From Escherichia phage FFH2, in the sequence record KJ190158: a DNA stretch of 64,000 bases. One strand, written 5' to 3'. Within the stretch, counting starts at the first letter, position 1, and each line of letters begins with the position of its first letter. The notes under the pieces are model-generated. The model searched no databases. It saw only the letters and a list, made by a program, of their open reading frames with translations, and had not been told where the DNA came from. The translations under genes were made by a program, and so were the position numbers. Below, piece by piece: positions 17,952 through 27,434 of this stretch.

Positions 17952-18191
17952 ATGTACAAGTCATTCTCAATCTACTCAAGACAGGCGAAACACTACACAG
18001 AGATCCTGATCACTCAGAAAAAGTCTGTAGAAGGTGAGTGGGAGTATCACCATAAAATGTTGCGTCCAGATTGGGTTTTTGATAGACTTATTGCTATGAT
18101 CCCTCTTGGAGAAGTATACCCTCTGACAGGTCATAGGGATGCTTGGGATTTAATTGATTACATAGATTCATTTAAGGAGCCCAGTGTATGA
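17952..18191 (+). CDS. hypothetical protein
   Basis: ATG 17952 after agagggggt RBS. Confidence 0.4.
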   Translation: MYKSFSIYSRQAKHYTEILITQKKSVEGEWEYHHKMLRPDWVFDRLIAMIPLGEVYPLTGHRDAWDLIDYIDSFKEPSV

Positions 18192-18586
18192 AGATTGAGA
18201 TCACTAAAGAAGGTAAGAAAGTGTCTGGAGACTATGCAACAGTAATTCGAGATTTAATGTTTGAAACCACCAAGTTCGGCACATCTAAAGTTGGTCAAAC
18301 TGTTAGTGTGCAAGGCAATATCACCACAGGGGAGAAGATAATCATCGTGATCAAAGGACAAGATCCTGTGGAAGGAACAGTGGGCCGAGGAGGCTACCTG
18401 TGCATTTCTGAAGAACCGCGCATGCTGGTTGCTGATAACTCCACAGGTAAAAAGCGGGTATGTAACACGGACGAGGTGATGATTATCTATCCAGTCAATC
18501 CAGATGATCCGGCAACATGGATTGTGGGAAATGAAATCTTCTCTTTAGAAGAGTTATCCTTTCCAGCTCCGCGCTCTGTTCAGTAA
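18188..18586 (+). CDS. hypothetical protein
   Basis: ORF, coupled start. Confidence 0.5.
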   Translation: MKIEITKEGKKVSGDYATVIRDLMFETTKFGTSKVGQTVSVQGNITTGEKIIIVIKGQDPVEGTVGRGGYLCISEEPRMLVADNSTGKKRVCNTDEVMIIYPVNPDDPATWIVGNEIFSLEELSFPAPRSVQ

Positions 18587-18625
18587 TAATTTATCTTACC
18601 AGGGACGGTAGAAGTAGGAGGTAGC

Positions 18626-18859
18626 ATGAAAGTTAAATTTCTTACAGATTTAGGGTACCCTTCCTTGGTTGACTGCATTGGTAAAATTGTGGAAGCAAAA
18701 CGGCTATCTGCAAACGATAATGTTGTCATGGTTAAGGGAAAAGATTTATTAGCTGCAGGTGCAGAGTCTGGCAGGATCTCTCCTGACTATACATATTACT
18801 TATCTTTAAGTAATCTACCAGAACGAGGCGGCAAAGGCCTTGAAGTTGTGGAGGAGTGA
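18626..18859 (+). CDS. Small acidic protein, MKVK-family paralog
   Basis: MKVKFL N-terminus, KGKDLLAAGA core, EVVEE C-terminus shared with 22289-26674 array. Confidence 0.5.
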   Translation: MKVKFLTDLGYPSLVDCIGKIVEAKRLSANDNVVMVKGKDLLAAGAESGRISPDYTYYLSLSNLPERGGKGLEVVEE

Positions 18860-19401
18860 CAGGTATGCTTCTGATTAACTGGGAAGACCTCTATGGGGAC
18901 AAAGACCCTGTTGCGTTTGTTGATCGTAGATGGAGATACACTGAAGAACAACTGGCTGCAAAAAATTTAACTGCGAAACGCAGAAAGATCATCCAGTGCA
19001 AGTACAAATACGCACAATTTGCTGCAAAAGTGTCTCCACAAATCGAGAGTTTTGTACTTAAATTGTATGACGAATACCTCAAGTTCAAATTGGATTTTGT
19101 ACAGGTGTACCGTGCACAGGTACGCCCAGATACCAACATATGTAGATGGAAGGTTGTTTGTGACGGTAAAGATTTGCCGCTCAGCTTGACAATTGAGTGG
19201 CGTTATGGGTATCATGAGTGTGGTCTGTATGATACTTGGGATGTCATTGTAGATCCTGCTAAGTACCTGAACACAGAGGAGCTGGAATATATCAATAAGG
19301 TTATTCTCGATATGTTTTTCAGATACACCCGTGAAAACTCTGAGAAAGAACGGGATGATTTTCTTGACACCATCAGCAACCATCTGCAGTATACAATTTA
19401 A
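18856..19401 (+). CDS. hypothetical protein
   Basis: ORF only. Confidence 0.5.
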   Translation: MTGMLLINWEDLYGDKDPVAFVDRRWRYTEEQLAAKNLTAKRRKIIQCKYKYAQFAAKVSPQIESFVLKLYDEYLKFKLDFVQVYRAQVRPDTNICRWKVVCDGKDLPLSLTIEWRYGYHECGLYDTWDVIVDPAKYLNTEELEYINKVILDMFFRYTRENSEKERDDFLDTISNHLQYTI

Positions 19402-19419
19402 CCTACAAAGGGAGGGCTA

Positions 19420-19644
19420 ATGAGTATAAATGTTGTGCTAATAGGCTACCTGGTAATAGCCGTTATAACAGCGGTATTCTTGACAGGTATATGCATCGTG
19501 TCTAGACGAAAGGTGAAGTTTGATGATTTTATCACCATCATCACTGCTGCACCTTTTTGGCCTATTGTTATCTTCATCGTAATAATGTGCCTAGTTGATT
19601 ACTACAAGAATATTCGTAAGGAGAAAAAGGAGAGTAGGGATTGA
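19420..19644 (+). CDS. Small membrane protein (2 predicted TM)
   Basis: Hydrophobic segments VLIGYLVIAVITAVFL and FWPIVIFIVIMCLV. Confidence 0.5.
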   Translation: MSINVVLIGYLVIAVITAVFLTGICIVSRRKVKFDDFITIITAAPFWPIVIFIVIMCLVDYYKNIRKEKKESRD

Positions 19645-19875
19645 GACCGCACCTAAAACTGTTTATACTGTTCTTAAAGAGATTGCGTTCTACGCAGATC
19701 TTAGCCAGGCACCTTTATGGGAAAAGAGCATGTATTTAAAATGGTGCGTTAATTTAGGGAGACCTTCCAGTGTTTCAAGCCATGTTTATTGAGATGCTAT
19801 CTGGGGTATTGTTACTGGTAGCCATCTTAGGTGGTGCAGTTCTGATGTATAACTATCTTGAAAAAGGAGACAGCA

Positions 19876-20061
19876 ATGGCAAAAAATAAATCTTTAGAGC
19901 AGGCTGAAAACCTTCTCCACGAGCTGGTAAAGGAGTGGAAAGTTGAATACTCAGATTTTAATGCACGAGAGGGTGAAGATTATTGGCCTACGGAGCGCTC
20001 AGAGGGCGAATGGTATCAAGATTTTATAGAGTGGTTATATCAGACGTGCGATGAGGGGTGA
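19876..20061 (+). CDS. hypothetical protein
   Basis: ATG 19876 after aaaggaga. Confidence 0.4.
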   Translation: MAKNKSLEQAENLLHELVKEWKVEYSDFNAREGEDYWPTERSEGEWYQDFIEWLYQTCDEG

Positions 20062-20063
20062 CG

Positions 20064-20519
20064 ATGTTTGTTAAATATGTAAAAACGTGCCTCAACAGTC
20101 TTGGCAGAGAGCATTGGTACACCTTACTTGAAAAAGGAGAAATTTTAACAAAATCTGGAAAGATAACTTTGATACCCTTGGACGATAAAGACCCGTCACT
20201 CCTTGTCATAGATGATTACGTTACAGGTGTGTCGTACGAGGTCTCTGTGGAGAGGTTAATACGCAGAGCTGGCGGCCCTTGTGATCAAAGAGAGTATGTT
20301 TTCGATTCCGTTACAGAGAGGGATCATCCGTCTTTAATGTTCAGGATGGTAATCAGGGATATGAGGTCATCTATAGATAGGATCGTAAAGGACATTAAGG
20401 AACCTTTTAGGGTAAAAGTTAAGAAGTTTTTTGATTCTAAGATTAACATACTTGCTGTTGTGCTAGGCGTAATTCAACTTCTGTTAATTTTGCACTATTT
20501 TGAACTGTTGTTTAAGTAG
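20064..20519 (+). CDS. hypothetical protein with C-terminal TM helix
   Basis: ATG after gagggg; hydrophobic C-terminus. Confidence 0.45.
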   Translation: MFVKYVKTCLNSLGREHWYTLLEKGEILTKSGKITLIPLDDKDPSLLVIDDYVTGVSYEVSVERLIRRAGGPCDQREYVFDSVTERDHPSLMFRMVIRDMRSSIDRIVKDIKEPFRVKVKKFFDSKINILAVVLGVIQLLLILHYFELLFK

Positions 20520-20579
20520 TGTGCAACAAGGCACAAAGGATGTGCCATAATTAAACAAATTAAGAAAGAGGTAGAGAGA

Positions 20580-20927
20580 ATGTCAAAGATTAAATCGATA
20601 TTAATGTGGGTAGCTGTTGTGGCTTTTGTAGGATACTGGACTTGGGAAACTGAATTAAAAGATATCGGATATACCAGTCTTGAGAGCAAGGCATGCATTG
20701 GCATAACCGATGCATTCAGGCAAAATGCTATGGATCACGAATGTGTCGATGCAGATATAGATGAGAAACTGTCTAAGGACAAGGATTTTTACCATGGTCA
20801 TGCCTTGCTTGATAGTGGTGACACTGTAGAATTCTGGTCGTGGTTCCGTGAAGATGGAACAATAAAGACAGCAGTAAAGATTTCCAACAAAGAGTTAATG
20901 CTGTTGCAGCAGAAGGAGGTGCAATGA
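20580..20927 (+). CDS. hypothetical protein with N-terminal TM/signal anchor
   Basis: RBS agaggtagag; N-terminal ILMWVAVVAFVGYW. Confidence 0.5.
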   Translation: MSKIKSILMWVAVVAFVGYWTWETELKDIGYTSLESKACIGITDAFRQNAMDHECVDADIDEKLSKDKDFYHGHALLDSGDTVEFWSWFREDGTIKTAVKISNKELMLLQQKEVQ

Positions 20928-21211
20928 TTTGGATATCCTACACTGATGGCACCATGCTGTATACTGCAGGTACTAGGTATGAAGTTCAGGAGGACGATAA
21001 AAAATTTATCGTAAAAACATTTGACAAGGACGACAACCTTTTGTTAGAATTGACTTACAAGGTTGGGGAGGTATCTAGCATCCAATTGGATTGCGGTCAT
21101 AAAGATAACCCGCTCAAGAAACCTGGGGTAGGTAAAGCTTCAGAAGAACGCCTGTCTCGTATTGCAGAAAGCGTTTCTGCACAAAAATCTAAGAAGAGGA
21201 TTAGAAAATGA
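20924..21211 (+). CDS. hypothetical protein
   Basis: ORF, coupled start. Confidence 0.45.
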   Translation: MIWISYTDGTMLYTAGTRYEVQEDDKKFIVKTFDKDDNLLLELTYKVGEVSSIQLDCGHKDNPLKKPGVGKASEERLSRIAESVSAQKSKKRIRK

Positions 21212-21408
21212 GTGACAAAATTCTTAAATTTAATACCTACTATGAGAATGATTTGAACGATCTGTATTATATAGTGCGTAGCGAAAACCCAAATGTAGTA
21301 CTGTTTTGCCGAGAACCTTTCAAAAAAGAGGAGATTGAATCTACCATGGATGTGGATCAGATTTCACACCTGCTGCTCCTTGGATCATTAAAAGAGGCAG
21401 TATTCTAA
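21208..21408 (+). CDS. hypothetical protein
   Basis: ORF, coupled start. Confidence 0.45.
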   Translation: MSDKILKFNTYYENDLNDLYYIVRSENPNVVLFCREPFKKEEIESTMDVDQISHLLLLGSLKEAVF

Positions 21409-21427
21409 ACCAGGATGGAGGGTTTTT

Positions 21428-21613
21428 ATGAAGCACTATTGTCTGTCTGGTAGAATGGGTGCAGATTGTGATTGGGTTTTCTTAAAACTTGTCAGCATTC
21501 GAGAGTCCATTTCAGAGGAAGAGCAAGAAAGTGAGCTAATGTCCTGGATCAACCATTACGGTAACACTTTTCGGCATGTTAAGGTAGAAGAGTTGCCAAG
21601 TGAGGCTGATTGA
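21428..21613 (+). CDS. hypothetical protein
   Basis: ORF only. Confidence 0.4.
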   Translation: MKHYCLSGRMGADCDWVFLKLVSIRESISEEEQESELMSWINHYGNTFRHVKVEELPSEAD

Positions 21614-21615
21614 CT

Positions 21616-21705
21616 ATGATTGCATCAATATTAACGTTTATGGGTGGCGTGGCATTCGGATTCATTGTTTGCCTGTTTATAGTGATTATGTCTATGCGAG
21701 GCTGA
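21616..21705 (+). CDS. Small hydrophobic peptide (29 aa)
   Basis: MIASILTFMGGVAFGFIVCLFIVIMSMRG fills gap between two ORFs. Confidence 0.3.
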   Translation: MIASILTFMGGVAFGFIVCLFIVIMSMRG

Positions 21706-21708
21706 ATT

Positions 21709-22005
21709 ATGAAACTTTTTGAGTGGTTTAAAAAGTTTAAATATAAAGCTGTAGCCATCGTGCCGTGGTCCATTCAGTGGGTTGATGAAGGTGGTCTACC
21801 AATACCTGGTGACAAAGATACTGGGTACTGGATTATGATGGAGAACGGGTTTGGAAAGCGAAAGTATACGTGCACAAACTCTACTCGATCTGCGCTTAAT
21901 AGAGTGCCTGGTTACAAACTTATGGTTGTGTGGAAAATGTCAGGCGTGCCTCCAGCTAATGCTCAATTTCTTACTGACAATCCGACCACGGTAGAGGAAG
22001 ATTGA
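21709..22005 (+). CDS. hypothetical protein
   Basis: ORF only. Confidence 0.45.
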   Translation: MKLFEWFKKFKYKAVAIVPWSIQWVDEGGLPIPGDKDTGYWIMMENGFGKRKYTCTNSTRSALNRVPGYKLMVVWKMSGVPPANAQFLTDNPTTVEED

Positions 22006-22007
22006 TA

Positions 22008-22289
22008 ATGAAAAAGATTAACAGTGGTGAAGTTGAGTTTAAACTTGTCGGGAAAGGCACTTACTGGGAAGTTCGTCAAAAGGTATATTTGTTCGGTCTT
22101 ATTCCCTATTGGTCTAAATTCTACTGGGGAGCTAACGAGTGGGGAAGATACGCCACCAAATCAATGGCACTTATTGGTATAGCAGAGTACATTGCAGCCA
22201 GAGATAGGGTTGGAGACACTTATTACTATACTGCGGACGATATTCGTAACAGTGTTTACGTCCCACAACCACCTGATGGAGACCGTTGA
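22008..22289 (+). CDS. hypothetical protein
   Basis: ATG 22008 after gaggaag. Confidence 0.45.
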   Translation: MKKINSGEVEFKLVGKGTYWEVRQKVYLFGLIPYWSKFYWGANEWGRYATKSMALIGIAEYIAARDRVGDTYYYTADDIRNSVYVPQPPDGDR

Positions 22290-22513
22290 TGAAAGTTAAA
22301 GTTTTAGATTCAAGCTTCTATATTGGTCAGGAGCCTTTAGTAGGAAAAGTGTTTACTGCTGTCCCTAACGAAGATTACCCTGACCTTTTAAAAATAAAAG
22401 GAGCAGATCTTATTGCCGCTGGTGCATCTCAGGAATGCTTTGACAGTCAGTGGACCTACAACTTTGCCCTAGGTGAGGATGTAGAGGTAGTGGAGGACGA
22501 TCATGAAGGTTAA
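22289..22513 (+). CDS. Small acidic protein, MKVK-family paralog
   Basis: MKVKVLDSSFYIGQ..IKGADLIAAGA..VEVVEDD. Confidence 0.5.
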   Translation: MKVKVLDSSFYIGQEPLVGKVFTAVPNEDYPDLLKIKGADLIAAGASQECFDSQWTYNFALGEDVEVVEDDHEG

Positions 22514-22757
22514 AATTCTTGATTCTAACGTCTACTTGGGACAATCCTTCCTGAATGGAAAGGTCGTTCCTGCGGTATACTTTGAAGGGTTGCCGTGGGA
22601 TGATCCTGTGCGGCAACATCACAGTTATGTAGGCCACAACGTGGTGTTTATCTTGGGATCAGACCTGATCACCGCTGGTGCACCTGAATATTATTTCGGG
22701 GAAGAGTCCTACTATGCCTTTGGGGTAGGGTCAGATGCAGATATTGTAGAGCTGTGA
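22503..22757 (+). CDS. Small acidic protein, MKVK-family paralog
   Basis: MKVKILDSNVYLGQ..LGSDLITAGA..DIVEL. Confidence 0.5.
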   Translation: MKVKILDSNVYLGQSFLNGKVVPAVYFEGLPWDDPVRQHHSYVGHNVVFILGSDLITAGAPEYYFGEESYYAFGVGSDADIVEL

Positions 22758-22769
22758 TGGGTAACCGTT

Positions 22770-23168
22770 GTGAAAAATAAACTGTTTAAAGTTACAATGA
22801 AAATTCGCGGGGCTTGGAGCGTAAAGCAAGGGCGTATTCCAGAATTTGAGAAAGACTTCTACGTAGTCTCCACCTCGGAGGAGGCTGCATGCTGGCAGGC
22901 TGGCTATGCCTATGCAAGAACCTGGTACGAAGGGTACCAGACTGGGGGCTATGACGGAGAAATTATCAGCAAGGGTGTAGAAGAAATTAATGTGTTGACA
23001 AGTGAAAAAGTTTTTGTTATAGTGCATCCAGATTCCAGAGTGAAGCATTACTGGAATGCCAGAACAAAAACTTGGACACCGTTTGCAGATTCTGCTACGC
23101 CACTTTTAAACCAGAAAGCTCTTGACTCTGCCCCAAGTTATGGGGTTGTTGAAGAAAAGCTAAACTGA
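22770..23168 (+). CDS. hypothetical protein, paralog of 24975-25370
   Basis: Shares VIVHPDSRVKHYWNARTKTWTPF with VMRHPHSNIAYYWDVLNNEWTPDL. Confidence 0.5.
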   Translation: MKNKLFKVTMKIRGAWSVKQGRIPEFEKDFYVVSTSEEAACWQAGYAYARTWYEGYQTGGYDGEIISKGVEEINVLTSEKVFVIVHPDSRVKHYWNARTKTWTPFADSATPLLNQKALDSAPSYGVVEEKLN

Positions 23169-23185
23169 AACAGTGAGGTGTCACC

Positions 23186-23476
23186 ATGATGGATTTAATT
23201 CTAAATATTGATAACGCAGGAGAGTTTAAAGACGATGGTGTAACAAGCATGGACAAACCCTGCTCTGCTAAGGTTGACTCAAAATGGACCTACAAGTTTG
23301 ACGGAGAGATCTTCGCAAATGATGAGAAGGTTGTAGATGCTGCAGCCATTTTAAACGCTCTAGGGTACGACCCTGTGAATTCTTTGATCAAGGATCCTGT
23401 TGAGTTTGCAGAGTATGTTCGAAAAATGGCAGATCTTGCTGTGGATATTTTAAAAACTATCGACAACAAGCTGTAA
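23186..23476 (+). CDS. hypothetical acidic protein
   Basis: ORF only. Confidence 0.45.
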   Translation: MMDLILNIDNAGEFKDDGVTSMDKPCSAKVDSKWTYKFDGEIFANDEKVVDAAAILNALGYDPVNSLIKDPVEFAEYVRKMADLAVDILKTIDNKL

Positions 23477-23482
23477 AAACTG

Positions 23483-23511
23483 TTGACACAACGCTTCAGA
23501 TTTAGTATCAT
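23483..23511 (+). promoter_or_regulatory. sigma70-type promoter TTGACA-N17-TATCAT
   Basis: Consensus -35; followed by hairpin 23521-23544 and hpf ATG 23559. Confidence 0.5.
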
Positions 23512-23558
23512 TGTTTTCAAAGAGGGTTTGGTTCCCTCTTCTTTAAAAGGAACACGTT

Positions 23559-23876
23559 ATGCAAATTGAAATCACTGGCAACGTAGAAATCACTGAAGGT
23601 ATGGTGTCTTTCATTTCCCACAAAATGTCTAAGCTGGAGCGTTTGCACCCCTCTGCCAACTATGCACGTGTGAGTGTAAAAGTTGAAAATGATCACCAGG
23701 AAGTTATGGCGCTCATTTTTGACAATTCTGGAAAAGAAGTTATTGCCAGGGCTAAAGGTAGTGATGCTTACGAGGCAACTGACCGTATGGTAGATGTTGC
23801 AGCACGTCAGCTGGCTAAATGCGGTGGAAAGAAAGGTAAGGGGAAAGGCAAAGTAAAGATTGACTTTGGAGAATGA
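23559..23876 (+). CDS. hpf: Ribosome hibernation promoting factor / RaiA (YfiA) family homolog
   Basis: MQIEITGNVEITEGM..KLERL..VSVKVEN..GKEVIARAKGSDAYEATDRMVDVAARQLAK aligns along full length with E. coli HPF/RaiA. Confidence 0.8.
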   Translation: MQIEITGNVEITEGMVSFISHKMSKLERLHPSANYARVSVKVENDHQEVMALIFDNSGKEVIARAKGSDAYEATDRMVDVAARQLAKCGGKKGKGKGKVKIDFGE

Positions 23877-24013
23877 GGTGCTACAATGGGCGTGATTAAG
23901 AAACTAGTCCCAAATGTAGAGATTGCATGCTTTGAAATTATGTTTGCAATCGCAGTTGTAGTTAATGTGTTAGGTTACGGCTATTAATATCAAATAATTG
24001 AGGAGACCTCTAA

Positions 24014-24283
24014 ATGAAAATTAAATTATTCAAAACTGAGCTGGCAGACAAAAACTGTGGACTGGTTGAAGGCATGATTGTCGAAGCACGACCAGTTGAC
24101 TATATGAAGGTGGTTCGTGATGCCCTGGGTGAAGGTTTTGATCTGATGGAGCCAGCTCTGCGAGAAGATGTTATCGAGATGGCTAAAAAGCACACACCTG
24201 AAGGAATGGTGGTGTTTGTTGCACCAGGTAACGGAGAAGAGTTGATTGTAACTCCGGATGTGTATGAGATTGTAGAGGAATAA
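24014..24283 (+). CDS. Small acidic protein, MKVK-family paralog
   Basis: MKIKLFKTEL..YEIVEE. Confidence 0.5.
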   Translation: MKIKLFKTELADKNCGLVEGMIVEARPVDYMKVVRDALGEGFDLMEPALREDVIEMAKKHTPEGMVVFVAPGNGEELIVTPDVYEIVEE

Positions 24284-24374
24284 TCCTGCTTGGATTAGCA
24301 TACTTCCTCGACAAGGAAGGTTTGTAATTATTTGTGGGAAAGGAATCCCAATCTCTTACCATAGGTGATACTAT

Positions 24375-24638
24375 ATGATTGTTTATTTTAAAACTTCAGG
24401 TGGATACCCTGATTCTCAAAGCTTGATCGGAAAAACGTGCACAGCATACTCACCTCTTGATGAGGAGGTAGGCGATATTCTACGAAATATGTATCGGATT
24501 GATCCCCAAGAAGCCTTTGATCAAAACCTTGTATTTGTCAAGGGCTCAGACATGAAGTCTTTGGGAGCATTCCCTGAAGCAGATGATGATGCCGTTTATT
24601 CGTTCATGACCCCTTTTGAAGCTATGGTTGTCGGGTGA
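24375..24638 (+). CDS. Small acidic protein, MKVK-family related
   Basis: IGKTCTAY..VKGSDMKSLGA core. Confidence 0.45.
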   Translation: MIVYFKTSGGYPDSQSLIGKTCTAYSPLDEEVGDILRNMYRIDPQEAFDQNLVFVKGSDMKSLGAFPEADDDAVYSFMTPFEAMVVG

Positions 24639-24642
24639 TAAT

Positions 24643-24975
24643 ATGAAAGTACGCTTTATTGGTGAAACAATTCCTGTGCATCTCCGGTCGCCTGAAGATT
24701 CTGCAGATCTTGCATCTCAGAAGGCGAGAGGTTATGATAAGAAAGTAATCTCAACCGATGTAGAACTTGAGGCTACTAGTCTACCTGACCCTGCTGCATT
24801 CTTTAATCATTATGGATACTATTTCAGCAATCTGATGAATATCGGTGAGCTTGTGTTTATTAGTGGTGGAGAAATTGTTAGCAAGCTTGGCGGCGATCCG
24901 GATGTCTTTCATGAAACCTGTCCTTTTGCATTTGTGGTAGGTTCAGATGTGGAAGTTATTGAGGAGGTGCGGTAA
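24643..24975 (+). CDS. Small acidic protein, MKVK-family related
   Basis: ATG 24643; C-terminal GSDVEVIEEV. Confidence 0.45.
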   Translation: MKVRFIGETIPVHLRSPEDSADLASQKARGYDKKVISTDVELEATSLPDPAAFFNHYGYYFSNLMNIGELVFISGGEIVSKLGGDPDVFHETCPFAFVVGSDVEVIEEVR

Positions 24976-25370
24976 TGGTAAGCCTATACCGTGTTGAGTA
25001 TAGCTCAGATACTGTGTACAACGTAAGAAGCAAAGATCGCAGCGACAGAGTGCAAGAAATGTATGTTCTTGCCGACAGTCCGTTATCTGCAGCGTTCAAG
25101 GCAGGGGCTCTTGCATCTCGTTGGAAATTTGAAGGCGGATCTTTCTATGAAGAAACCCTTGAAGATTCTGTTGTTATTTCTTCTGTAGAGGTTTCAGATG
25201 ACTACGAAGGGAAAAAGTTCGTAATGCGGCACCCACACAGCAACATTGCGTACTACTGGGATGTTCTGAACAACGAGTGGACCCCAGATCTTCAGAAGGC
25301 TACTGTGCTAACACCGTTTTTGGCAGATAAGTTCCCACCAGAAGGTAATTTATCCGCACTGTTTCAGTAA
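24975..25370 (+). CDS. hypothetical protein, paralog of 22770-23168
   Basis: Shared HPxS..YW..WTP block. Confidence 0.5.
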   Translation: MVSLYRVEYSSDTVYNVRSKDRSDRVQEMYVLADSPLSAAFKAGALASRWKFEGGSFYEETLEDSVVISSVEVSDDYEGKKFVMRHPHSNIAYYWDVLNNEWTPDLQKATVLTPFLADKFPPEGNLSALFQ

Positions 25371-25388
25371 TTTTCTTGCACACAGGTG

Positions 25389-25417
25389 TTGACAACACCA
25401 ACCCTGTGTGAAATAAT
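25389..25417 (+). promoter_or_regulatory. sigma70-type promoter TTGACA-N17-AATAAT
   Basis: Consensus -35 with A/T-rich -10. Confidence 0.45.
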
Positions 25418-25449
25418 ACCTTCATCTTAACAAGACGGGAGACTGATTG

Positions 25450-25707
25450 ATGAAGATTAAACTGAAAAACCTTGAAATGGCAGAGATTCAGGATGGTGTT
25501 GATTTCCGCTCTAAAGATGGTGACATCTTAGAGGTAAATCTTCCAACCTACGAGCTGATTAAAGGTTTTGGCAACGTTCAGGAAGAGGATATTCCAGAAA
25601 TTCTTATGATGTTGATTCTTGACGGAACTGTGTTTGTAGGTGAAGGTGAGAACGCTATTGCAATCCCAGGCCATTTTTATGAAGTAGTTGACGAAGAGGT
25701 GCTGTAA
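25450..25707 (+). CDS. Small acidic protein, MKVK-family paralog
   Basis: MKIKLKNLE..FYEVVDEEVL; ATG after gggag. Confidence 0.5.
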   Translation: MKIKLKNLEMAEIQDGVDFRSKDGDILEVNLPTYELIKGFGNVQEEDIPEILMMLILDGTVFVGEGENAIAIPGHFYEVVDEEVL

Positions 25708-26058
25708 ATGAAAGTAGAAATTACCGGTTTTGATGTGAATGTGGTTCCGGAAGATATTTTAGCTAAACTTCCAGAAGGTTTTGGTAACGGCGTTGTGGTG
25801 GATGCTGTTCCTCCTACCAAAGACATTCTGCTGCAGTATGGTGTAGCAGAGGAAGATGTCGATAAAGTTCTTACAATGATGGCAATCGATCGTGTTGTCG
25901 TTGTTAAAGGTCTCGATAATTTTGAGAGTGATCCACTGATTATTCGTGGAGATGACTACAAAATCATCGATAATGAAGGCCAAGAGTTCTATGAGCCTTG
26001 TGCAGAAGATATTCTTAACTTATTACTGGAAGCAGGCACCGAAGAGGAGGACGAATAA
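25708..26058 (+). CDS. Small acidic protein, MKVK-family paralog
   Basis: MKVEITGFDV..; strongly acidic tail. Confidence 0.5.
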   Translation: MKVEITGFDVNVVPEDILAKLPEGFGNGVVVDAVPPTKDILLQYGVAEEDVDKVLTMMAIDRVVVVKGLDNFESDPLIIRGDDYKIIDNEGQEFYEPCAEDILNLLLEAGTEEEDE

Positions 26059-26387
26059 TGAAGATTGACCCGTTACTGAAGGCTCGTGCAGAAAAAGCGT
26101 ACACCATTAAGTTGACCAACTTGGTTCCTACTTGTCATCCGGATGTAGGTTGGCCCGAAGGTTTGGTGGAGGGAACTGTAACAGCTGCATACCTTCCTAA
26201 CATCAAATACCTCATGGAAATCTTGGAGCTGGATGAGGAAACGGCAGAAGAGTTCCAGTTGGACATGAAACAAAGTGGGACTCTGGTTATTCACGGGTGG
26301 TATAATACTAAAGATGCAGAAGACCCTCTGGTAACTTCTAATCTGGCATATGAAATCTTAGGGCCTTTGAACCTGGAGGAAGACTAA
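26058..26387 (+). CDS. Small acidic protein
   Basis: Coupled ORF in array. Confidence 0.5.
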   Translation: MKIDPLLKARAEKAYTIKLTNLVPTCHPDVGWPEGLVEGTVTAAYLPNIKYLMEILELDEETAEEFQLDMKQSGTLVIHGWYNTKDAEDPLVTSNLAYEILGPLNLEED

Positions 26388-26674
26388 TGAAAGATCTGGT
26401 TAAGATTAAGATTAAAGATACCAATGGAGAACTCAGTCATTTTGGAATTAATGATGGTGACGAGCTGATCGCACACCTGCCTACCAAGGAGGTTGTAAGC
26501 AAAGCAGTTGCCGGAGAAGAAGCTGCAATGCAGGCTGCAGGTGTGGATGAAAACTATGTAGCTATGTGCATGTGCCGAGATCAGGTTGTTCTGTATAAAG
26601 CGTATCGACCAAACGGAGCCACGGAGTGGCTTGTATTCCGACCCGAAGGATATGAAATCTTAGAGGCACTATGA
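26387..26674 (+). CDS. Small acidic protein
   Basis: Coupled ORF in array, C-terminal YEILEAL. Confidence 0.5.
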   Translation: MKDLVKIKIKDTNGELSHFGINDGDELIAHLPTKEVVSKAVAGEEAAMQAAGVDENYVAMCMCRDQVVLYKAYRPNGATEWLVFRPEGYEILEAL

Positions 26675-26763
26675 TAAATCTTGCCAAGGTTGCAACGGCA
26701 CTGTTAATTATTTGCTGGTCAGTAACCTTAACACTGTGTCTTGTATTTCAGTGAGGTGCTTGT

Positions 26764-27027
26764 ATGAACATCCTGATGTGGGTTATAGCAGTGGCGTTTG
26801 TTGCATGTTTTTGCTGCTGGGTTGCGGTGAGGATTTCTGTAGCTACCCTTCGGAAGTTGGGGTTCTCAGAATGGGATATTAATATCCTTTCTTTTCGCAA
26901 TGAAACAATCTCAGCCGCCCTGCTTTGTAAGAAATTTAAGTGGGAACCTTGTGAGGTCATGAGCTATCTAAGAACAGGCGATATCCCTGAAAGATTTAAA
27001 AAAGTTCTTGACGGCAAGGATAAATGA
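26764..27027 (+). CDS. Small membrane protein
   Basis: N-terminal ILMWVIAVAFVACFCCWVAV TM segment. Confidence 0.45.
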   Translation: MNILMWVIAVAFVACFCCWVAVRISVATLRKLGFSEWDINILSFRNETISAALLCKKFKWEPCEVMSYLRTGDIPERFKKVLDGKDK

Positions 27028-27182: not shown

Positions 27183-27434
27183 ATGACGAAGATTGACTTG
27201 AATGCTGGTGATCATGTTGTTGTCAAATGCATTGGAGATTATCTTGGATTCACAATCGGCAATACTTACGAGGCGGTAGTGGCGAAGGTTTATCATGATA
27301 AAGTCCTCAGTCTTGTATTTGACTGTGATGATGACGGAGATGACCGTTACGTCTGTGAGGTGCTGGCTCGTGACGATAGTGAAGACCAGAAATTCCTGGT
27401 TATTGAACTGAACGGTATTTTTGTAGAACGTTAA
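27183..27434 (+). CDS. hypothetical acidic protein
   Basis: ATG 27183 after aaggag. Confidence 0.45.
   Translation: MTKIDLNAGDHVVVKCIGDYLGFTIGNTYEAVVAKVYHDKVLSLVFDCDDDGDDRYVCEVLARDDSEDQKFLVIELNGIFVER

Follow-up and report, generated by a model that had tools for sequence, protein, structure and literature searches.

Phages T4 and SPO1 carry in their early regions, and lambdoid phages in their 'morons', tightly packed small genes of unknown function that stand behind host-type promoters, are genus-specific and are exchangeable between phages; multigene families of small accessory proteins are a familiar kind of feature in such regions. Another set of described systems, CarS, Ocr, ArdA and Arn, consists of small, acidic, non-enzymatic proteins, and the CarS antirepressor of Myxococcus is an SH3-like acidic mimic of DNA. 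Here we analyze ten small genes of Escherichia phage FFH2 (record KJ190158), labeled a to j and lying between positions 18626 and 26674 of the 64,000-nucleotide (nt) stretch that we call the window. They belong among the multigene families of phage early regions, and their products are likewise small, mostly acidic and apparently non-enzymatic, but have no detectable homology or specific structural match to CarS, Ocr, ArdA or Arn. In contrast to the T4, SPO1 and moron blocks, the ten are paralogs: judging from their sequences, they constitute two old families of five members each (A: a, b, c, e, f; B: d, g, h, i, j), in numbers that did not vary among the eight sampled genomes or contigs of rV5-like phages. 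PHROGs spreads the same genes over eight families with neither function nor fold, whereas here they reduce to two families with an SH3-like fold prediction. The sequences were already catalogued as PHROGs of unknown function; what is new is the two-family grouping, the fold prediction and the distribution of family A.

The window is assignable to Vequintavirus, as an rV5-like myovirus of E. coli, with positions 18000-27000 being 98.1% identical to phage PDX and 97.8% identical to rV5. The rV5 genome paper describes 88 mainly small open reading frames (ORFs) in 29 kb of genome, places genes 82-163, nucleotide-metabolism genes included, in one transcription unit, and reports that until recently nearly 70% of the gene products of rV5 had been ORFans (PMC3606486); it makes no mention of paralogs among the small ORFs. 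Literature searches on Vequintavirus early genes, paralogs, PHROG identifiers, transcriptomes and anti-defense returned nothing on these ten genes, and no expression data for them. All ten ORFs are present at the starts given for them in an initial annotation and are annotated coding sequences (CDSs) in rV5, where they match ORF127, 140, 141 and 146-153, each a 'hypothetical protein'; their measured lengths of 74-116 amino acids (aa) differ by a single residue at either end from the 75-115 first given. They lie on the plus strand downstream of RNR, ThyX, PhoH, ClpP-like protease and Dam genes. In PVP-SE1, of the sister genus Seunavirus, the upstream core genes are found as well, but the block at this place is a different one and has no A or B members. 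The ten genes encode single-domain proteins and are part of a block of small genes particular to the genus; they are listed here by family (pI, isoelectric point; HMM, hidden Markov model):

18626..18859, + strand: a, family A, 77 aa, pI 5.4; PHROG 5009 HMM at E 6e-36; hhalign a-b 99%
22289..22513, + strand: b, family A, 74 aa, pI 4.1; the family A protein modeled
22503..22757, + strand: c, family A, 84 aa; 11-nt overlap with b; insertion between strands 2 and 3
24375..24638, + strand: e, family A, 87 aa, divergent; neither MKVK nor EVVEE at its ends; PHROG 13920
24643..24975, + strand: f, family A, 110 aa; strand 1 followed by a long insertion; alignable in its C-terminal half only
24014..24283, + strand: d, family B, 89 aa; solitary gene behind its own promoter-like site
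25450..25707, + strand: g, family B, 85 aa; heads the g-h-i-j operon; the family B protein modeled
25708..26058, + strand: h, family B, 116 aa, net charge -21; acidic C-terminal tail
26058..26387, + strand: i, family B, 109 aa; N-terminal extension; acidic tail
26387..26674, + strand: j, family B, 95 aa; two ORFs (ORF153/154) in the rV5 record

The two overlapping ORFs that correspond to j in rV5 (NC_011041, 11389-11659) are a single intact gene here and in six other Vequintavirus genomes; the split in rV5 is a frameshift or sequencing error.

Family structure of the ten proteins

All-against-all BLASTP of the plus-strand genes of the window connects the five family A proteins (b-c 4e-14, a-b 4e-7, b-f 1e-3, c-f 2e-3, a-e 9e-3) and, within family B, g with h (8e-4). 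PHROGs groups a, b and c in family 5009 and gives the remaining seven one family apiece, all of unknown function (5009, 13920 and 13661 for family A; 11868, 12359, 12155, 12457 and 12794 for family B). The PHROG 5009 HMM matches b (2e-38) and c (4e-32), like a, over the full length, e weakly at 1e-4 and f at 0.15; none of the family B proteins matches it.

Profiles built from ortholog alignments, which drew on related phages and database matches, extend these links to all ten. When the 467 six-frame ORFs of the window were scored with an HMM made from the orthologs of four members of a family, the fifth, left-out member ranked first of 467 in every one of the ten tests, with the next ORF at E of about 1 (family A: a 3e-12, b 2e-18, c 7e-21, e 5e-7, f 3e-6; family B: d 2e-3, g 2e-5, h 1e-9, i 1e-3, j 3e-5). 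The final hhalign matrix, for which orthologs from L021, a divergent 128 kb relative, were added to the profiles, gives 85-99% for most pairs within family A (a-b and b-c 99%, e against a, b and c 89-93%). Member f joins via b and c (c-f 96%, b-f 85% over about 39 columns), a-f and e-f being weak. Pairwise similarity within family B is lower and reaches 82-87% only after addition of the divergent ortholog (g-h 87%, h-i 82%, d-j 41%, h-j and i-j 36%, g-j 24%, d-g 21%); the d-j and d-g alignments span 77-85 columns. By contrast, all A-B pairs stay at or below 2.5% with the divergent orthologs included, the family-level comparison of A with B gives 3%, and the HMM of either family scores at noise on members of the other. 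Because the matrix falls into two blocks and the leave-one-out tests follow the same pattern, the similarity is real but is that of two families of five, not of the one MKVK family of nine or ten in the initial annotation; alignment and HMM building, its proposed check, find similarity beyond composition within each family and none between them.

Searches of Pfam, NCBIfam and PDB sequences with the ten proteins and their distant homologs gave no meaningful match. No SH3 profile of Pfam (SH3_1 and relatives) matches any of the ten at E up to 1, none has a Pfam KOW match, and no named family, anti-defense or other, is matched in Pfam, PHROGs or NCBIfam. The proteins are acidic, at pI 4.0-5.4.

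Short terminal motifs are shared more widely than the profiles. Motif counts were made over the 134 gene-like ORFs of the window, that is, the ten genes and 124 others. The C-terminal motif [ED][VI][VIL][ED] occurs in 7 of the ten (a, b, c and f of family A; d, g and j of family B) and in 0 of 124 others (Fisher p 9e-10), so that the acidic end first attributed to the whole set holds for four A and three B proteins and fails in the other three. The N-terminal motif MK[VI][KRE][VILF] is likewise found in 7/10 against 3/124 (Fisher p 1e-7), while the strict form proposed at the outset, MK(V/I)K(V/I/F)L, is confined to a, b and c; MK is the commonest ORF start (29/134). The central GADLIAAGA-like segment, also ascribed to all, is a family A feature: a, b and c have it, e and f have a degenerate form of it, and no family B protein has it. 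The description 'acidic' suits nine of the ten, with net charges of -6 to -21, but not member a (pI 5.4, net charge -1).

In six of the genes (a, b, f, g, h and i) the last codons, which encode E-V-V-E-E or E-E-E-D, hold the GGAGG or GAGG Shine-Dalgarno sequence of the next gene (18840-18858, 22490-22502, 24955-24974, 25690-25707, 26040-26057 and 26370-26386). Because the Shine-Dalgarno sequence is embedded in its codons, the acidic C-terminus may be partly constrained at the RNA level. Members c, d and j have the C-terminal motif with no tightly coupled gene downstream.

Predicted fold, history and layout

Structures were predicted with AlphaFold2 for one member of each family, b from a 13-sequence alignment and g from a 30-sequence family B alignment, and a five-stranded SH3-like small beta-barrel, of the fold class of SH3, KOW, PsaE and chromo/Tudor-like proteins and superposable on SH3, KOW or PsaE structures, is confidently predicted for both, which answers for these two proteins the structure prediction that the initial annotation had suggested. 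The model of b has a predicted local distance difference test score (pLDDT) of 92, with strands at residues 2-5, 21-23, 33-37, 56-61 and 65-69 and a helix at 38-43; that of g has a pLDDT of 88, with strands at 2-5, 26-28, 61-63, 70-72 and 77-80 and helices at 34-38 and 45-57. In the family A model a short helix (G-x-D-L-I-x-A-G-A) and a loop follow strand 3, and in the family B model two helices lie between strands 2 and 3, the same site at which c, e and f have insertions. A Foldseek search of viral models with g found an 86-aa protein of Vibrio phage Vc1 (A0A6M5CA15; 34% identity, template modeling (TM) score 0.78).

The copies are old. Each of seven Vequintavirus genomes has five A, five B and two genes of a third family, C (listed below), and L021 retains all ten A and B genes as 1:1 orthologs in the same order at 29-74% identity (a 74, b 66, c 42, d 60, e 57, f 54, g 49, h 29, i 47, j 46), together with the second family C copy only. 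The ratio of nonsynonymous to synonymous substitution rates (dN/dS) between orthologs is 0.02-0.28, like that of the neighboring hibernation factor (HPF) and ClpP-like genes, and all ten ORFs are real genes under purifying selection. The duplications are older than the split of the rV5-like lineage, and, because the same five-plus-five count is found everywhere sampled, the copies are old, individually retained and not visibly diversifying. Copy-number variation among related phages, which the initial annotation had proposed to look for, is thus nil among those sampled, and the evolutionary pattern does not especially favor its suggestion of diversified host-interaction or anti-defense modules.

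At the DNA level, a repeat search found only one remnant, of 30 nt and 80% identity, between b (22400-22429) and c (22656-22685) at the GADLIAAGA motif. It coincides with the junction of a natural b/c fusion of 70 aa (P0014), seen in two contigs of up to 133 kb; because the repeat matches that junction, we infer that unequal recombination between copies does occur, rarely, and deletes one copy. Each family C gene follows two A genes, which suggests an old duplication of an A-A-C segment.

Family A reaches beyond the rV5-like phages. Searched exhaustively with HMMER for family A, a set of 1.84 billion representative proteins yielded 37 at E up to 1e-3, mostly of 63-87 aa and none with a Pfam family, and the wider family follows the pattern MKVKLLNDGGY-G...GKV--A....I-G-ELI-AGA...F...Y-F--G-E-EVIEE, with G19, K20, G38, L41, G45, Y57 and F59 as conserved internal positions. 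One homolog of 75 aa (P0030), to which member a is closest (49% identity), is a single copy among the small ORFs between the Q antiterminator and holin genes of lambdoid E. coli prophages; a T7-like contig has three family A copies between its DnaB-like helicase and DNA polymerase A genes, and another contig encodes a two-domain family A fusion protein near dCMP deaminase and primase genes. A scan of viral contigs with a single protein found two loci. Family A behaves as a mobile accessory gene. Large multi-domain proteins that also appeared in the HMMER output (P0095, P0121; YDG/MBG repeat proteins) were rejected as spurious repeat matches. A tblastn search of a phage collection with b and g matched Vequintavirus-genus records only, and nearly all matches of a word-indexed protein search with the A and B alignments were Vequintavirus orthologs; by sequence, family B is found in rV5-like phages only. 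A 98-aa protein from a 657-nt metagenome contig (P0087) joins an N-terminal part of 55 residues that matches Pfam DUF7399 (E 3e-11) to the C-terminal half of i; DUF7399 has no counterpart in the window.

The ten genes had been described as a tandem array, most of it translationally coupled. In fact they are spread over 8 kb in four clusters, between which lie about 20 unrelated genes, the HPF gene included, and the one truly contiguous array is g-h-i-j. Coupling is borne out for b-c, for e-f and the family C gene at 24975, and for g-h-i-j (gaps of -11 to +4 nt), but not for d, which is solitary. Three sigma-70-like sites were found in this part of the window, two of which coincide with promoters annotated in rV5:

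25389..25417, + strand: sigma-70-like promoter, TTGACA-17-AATAAT, TG-extended, ahead of g-h-i-j; the annotated rV5 P150
23860..23887, + strand: sigma-70-like promoter-like site, TTGACT-16-TACAAT, TG-extended, ahead of d; consensus match only
23483-23511: sigma-70-like promoter, ahead of the HPF gene

An early-region setting is plausible.

Common origin and possible roles

Descent of A and B from one ancestral gene is plausible and, in our estimate, somewhat better than an even chance. Stated in full, all ten would be one superfamily derived from a single small-barrel gene, with A and B as diverged branches, a reading toward which we lean slightly. It accounts for the same five-strand SH3-like topology predicted for b and g, for an MK(V/I)K-type first strand and a Y/V-E-V-V-E last strand that hardly any other gene of the window has, for the likeness of the ten in size and acidity within one 8 kb neighborhood, and for the insertions of c, e and f at the site of the family B helices; against it stand the hhalign values between the families and the noise-level cross-family HMMs, and terminal motifs that are short and partly favored by translation signals (MK starts, GGAGG within EE codons). 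The extreme alternative is that the resemblance is purely compositional, or driven by those same signals, among unrelated ORFans. The frequency of MK starts and the coincidence of EVVEE codons with downstream Shine-Dalgarno sequences speak for it, but within-family, full-length profile matches stand far above all 467 control ORFs, the wider family A keeps its internal positions, and c, d and j have the C-terminal motif with no coupled gene to impose it. We consider this alternative very improbable overall: it is refuted within each family and is left as a partial explanation of the resemblance between A and B only.

SH3-like folds are a classic interaction module. The reading that we prefer for the ten genes is that two old SH3-like families, with individually retained copies, would supply small binder proteins that have no enzymatic activity and are produced at an early stage of infection. 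The acidic barrel would be their constant part, and the variable loops on it would let each paralog attach, in stoichiometric amounts, to a host (or phage) protein of its own, as in host takeover or the inhibition of a host defense or a nucleic-acid-binding protein. A binder role is suggested because the proteins match no enzyme family, have only 74-116 aa, are acidic in nine cases of ten and are predicted to have an SH3-like fold. We regard the full statement as evenly balanced, its functional part being the main uncertainty. Several points weigh against it. No homolog has a known function; the early timing is read from gene order and from matches to promoter consensus; a steady copy number and a low dN/dS are typically not the marks of an ongoing arms race; and member a is without marked acidity. 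As to a common origin of the two families, their profiles show no significant similarity, the SH3-like fold is common, and the C-terminal motif that they share may be partly due to embedded ribosome-binding sites. A bolder version, in which A and B are one ancient repertoire of SH3-like binders, each neutralizing a different host defense or housekeeping protein, is improbable; if it were true, the wider family A of lambdoid prophages, T7-like and rV5-like phages would be a widespread, so far unrecognized phage inhibitor scaffold.

More specific roles can be set beside that of a general binder. The proteins might be acidic mimics of nucleic acid, blocking restriction enzymes, repressors or other host proteins that bind DNA or RNA, as CarS, Ocr and Arn do. 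Net charges of -6 to -21, the acidic tails of h and i, the small size and the early-type setting fit such mimicry, but many unrelated small proteins of the same block are equally acidic and member a is nearly neutral, and we think it unlikely. KOW-like hits, and an HPF/RaiA gene (23559-23876) between the clusters, would agree with KOW- or Sm-like barrels that bind RNA or ribosomes and act on the translation or transcription machinery alongside a phage hibernation factor; with no Pfam KOW, Sm or S1 match, a strong negative charge that speaks against RNA binding, and family A homologs of other phages that do not adjoin HPF, this is quite unlikely. The positions of family A homologs in the T7-like contig, between helicase and polymerase, and in the other contig, near dCMP deaminase and primase, would instead fit small accessory subunits of the phage's own replication or nucleotide-metabolism machinery, in place of host-directed factors, a role that the place of the block after the RNR, ThyX, PhoH, ClpP and Dam genes, the purifying selection and the fixed copy number would also suit. 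However, the genes are absent from Seunavirus PVP-SE1, which has the same replication and nucleotide genes, and the lambdoid-prophage copy lies in the Q-to-lysis region of small ORFs, far from replication genes; we judge such a role unlikely.

Whichever role applies, ten ORFans of the rV5 type become two defined families with a confident fold prediction, one of which reaches unrelated phages and prophages, and they make a small, concrete set of candidates for binding and defense-suppression screens. The practical value is modest, in that the fold implies no function and the pattern is that of stably retained genes and not of an actively diversifying arsenal; a demonstration that any of the paralogs inhibits a host system would make them more interesting.

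Neighboring genes and other observations

Four further genes of the block bear on the account above:

22770..23168, + strand: C1, family C, 132 aa, PHROG 7379; directly downstream of b-c
24975..25370, + strand: C2, family C, 131 aa, PHROG 7379; downstream of e-f, 1-nt overlap with f
23559-23876: HPF/RaiA ribosome hibernation factor, Pfam Ribosomal_S30AE at E 2e-12; in the middle of the small-gene block, between A and B clusters
27183..27434, + strand: possible small-barrel relative, 83 aa, acidic, pI 4.3, PHROG 12851

The two family C proteins are paralogs of each other (BLASTP 6e-8, hhalign 94%). The gene at 27183-27434 was noticed because Foldseek matched the g model with a Shigella phage CM1 protein of 83 aa (TM score 0.52, probability 0.99); the sole 83-aa CDS in 17 kb of CM1 is its ortholog, and it is tentatively another small-barrel relative, assigned by length and synteny.

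Eighteen GenBank records labeled 'Campylobacter phage' (host C. jejuni) match the region over the same range of identity as the coliphages; the examples listed, at 96.6-97.6% identity, suggest mislabeled or contaminant sequences. ARAGORN finds zero tRNA genes in the window, while rV5-like phages are reported to have six, and the cumulative GC skew changes direction at about 28-30 kb, the place at which plus-strand transcription gives way to minus-strand transcription. Finally, two otherwise unrelated small proteins, encoded at 20580-20927 and 26764-27027, have a near-identical hydrophobic N-terminal segment of 13 residues (69% identity, hhalign 55%), which may be a membrane anchor or signal common to both.

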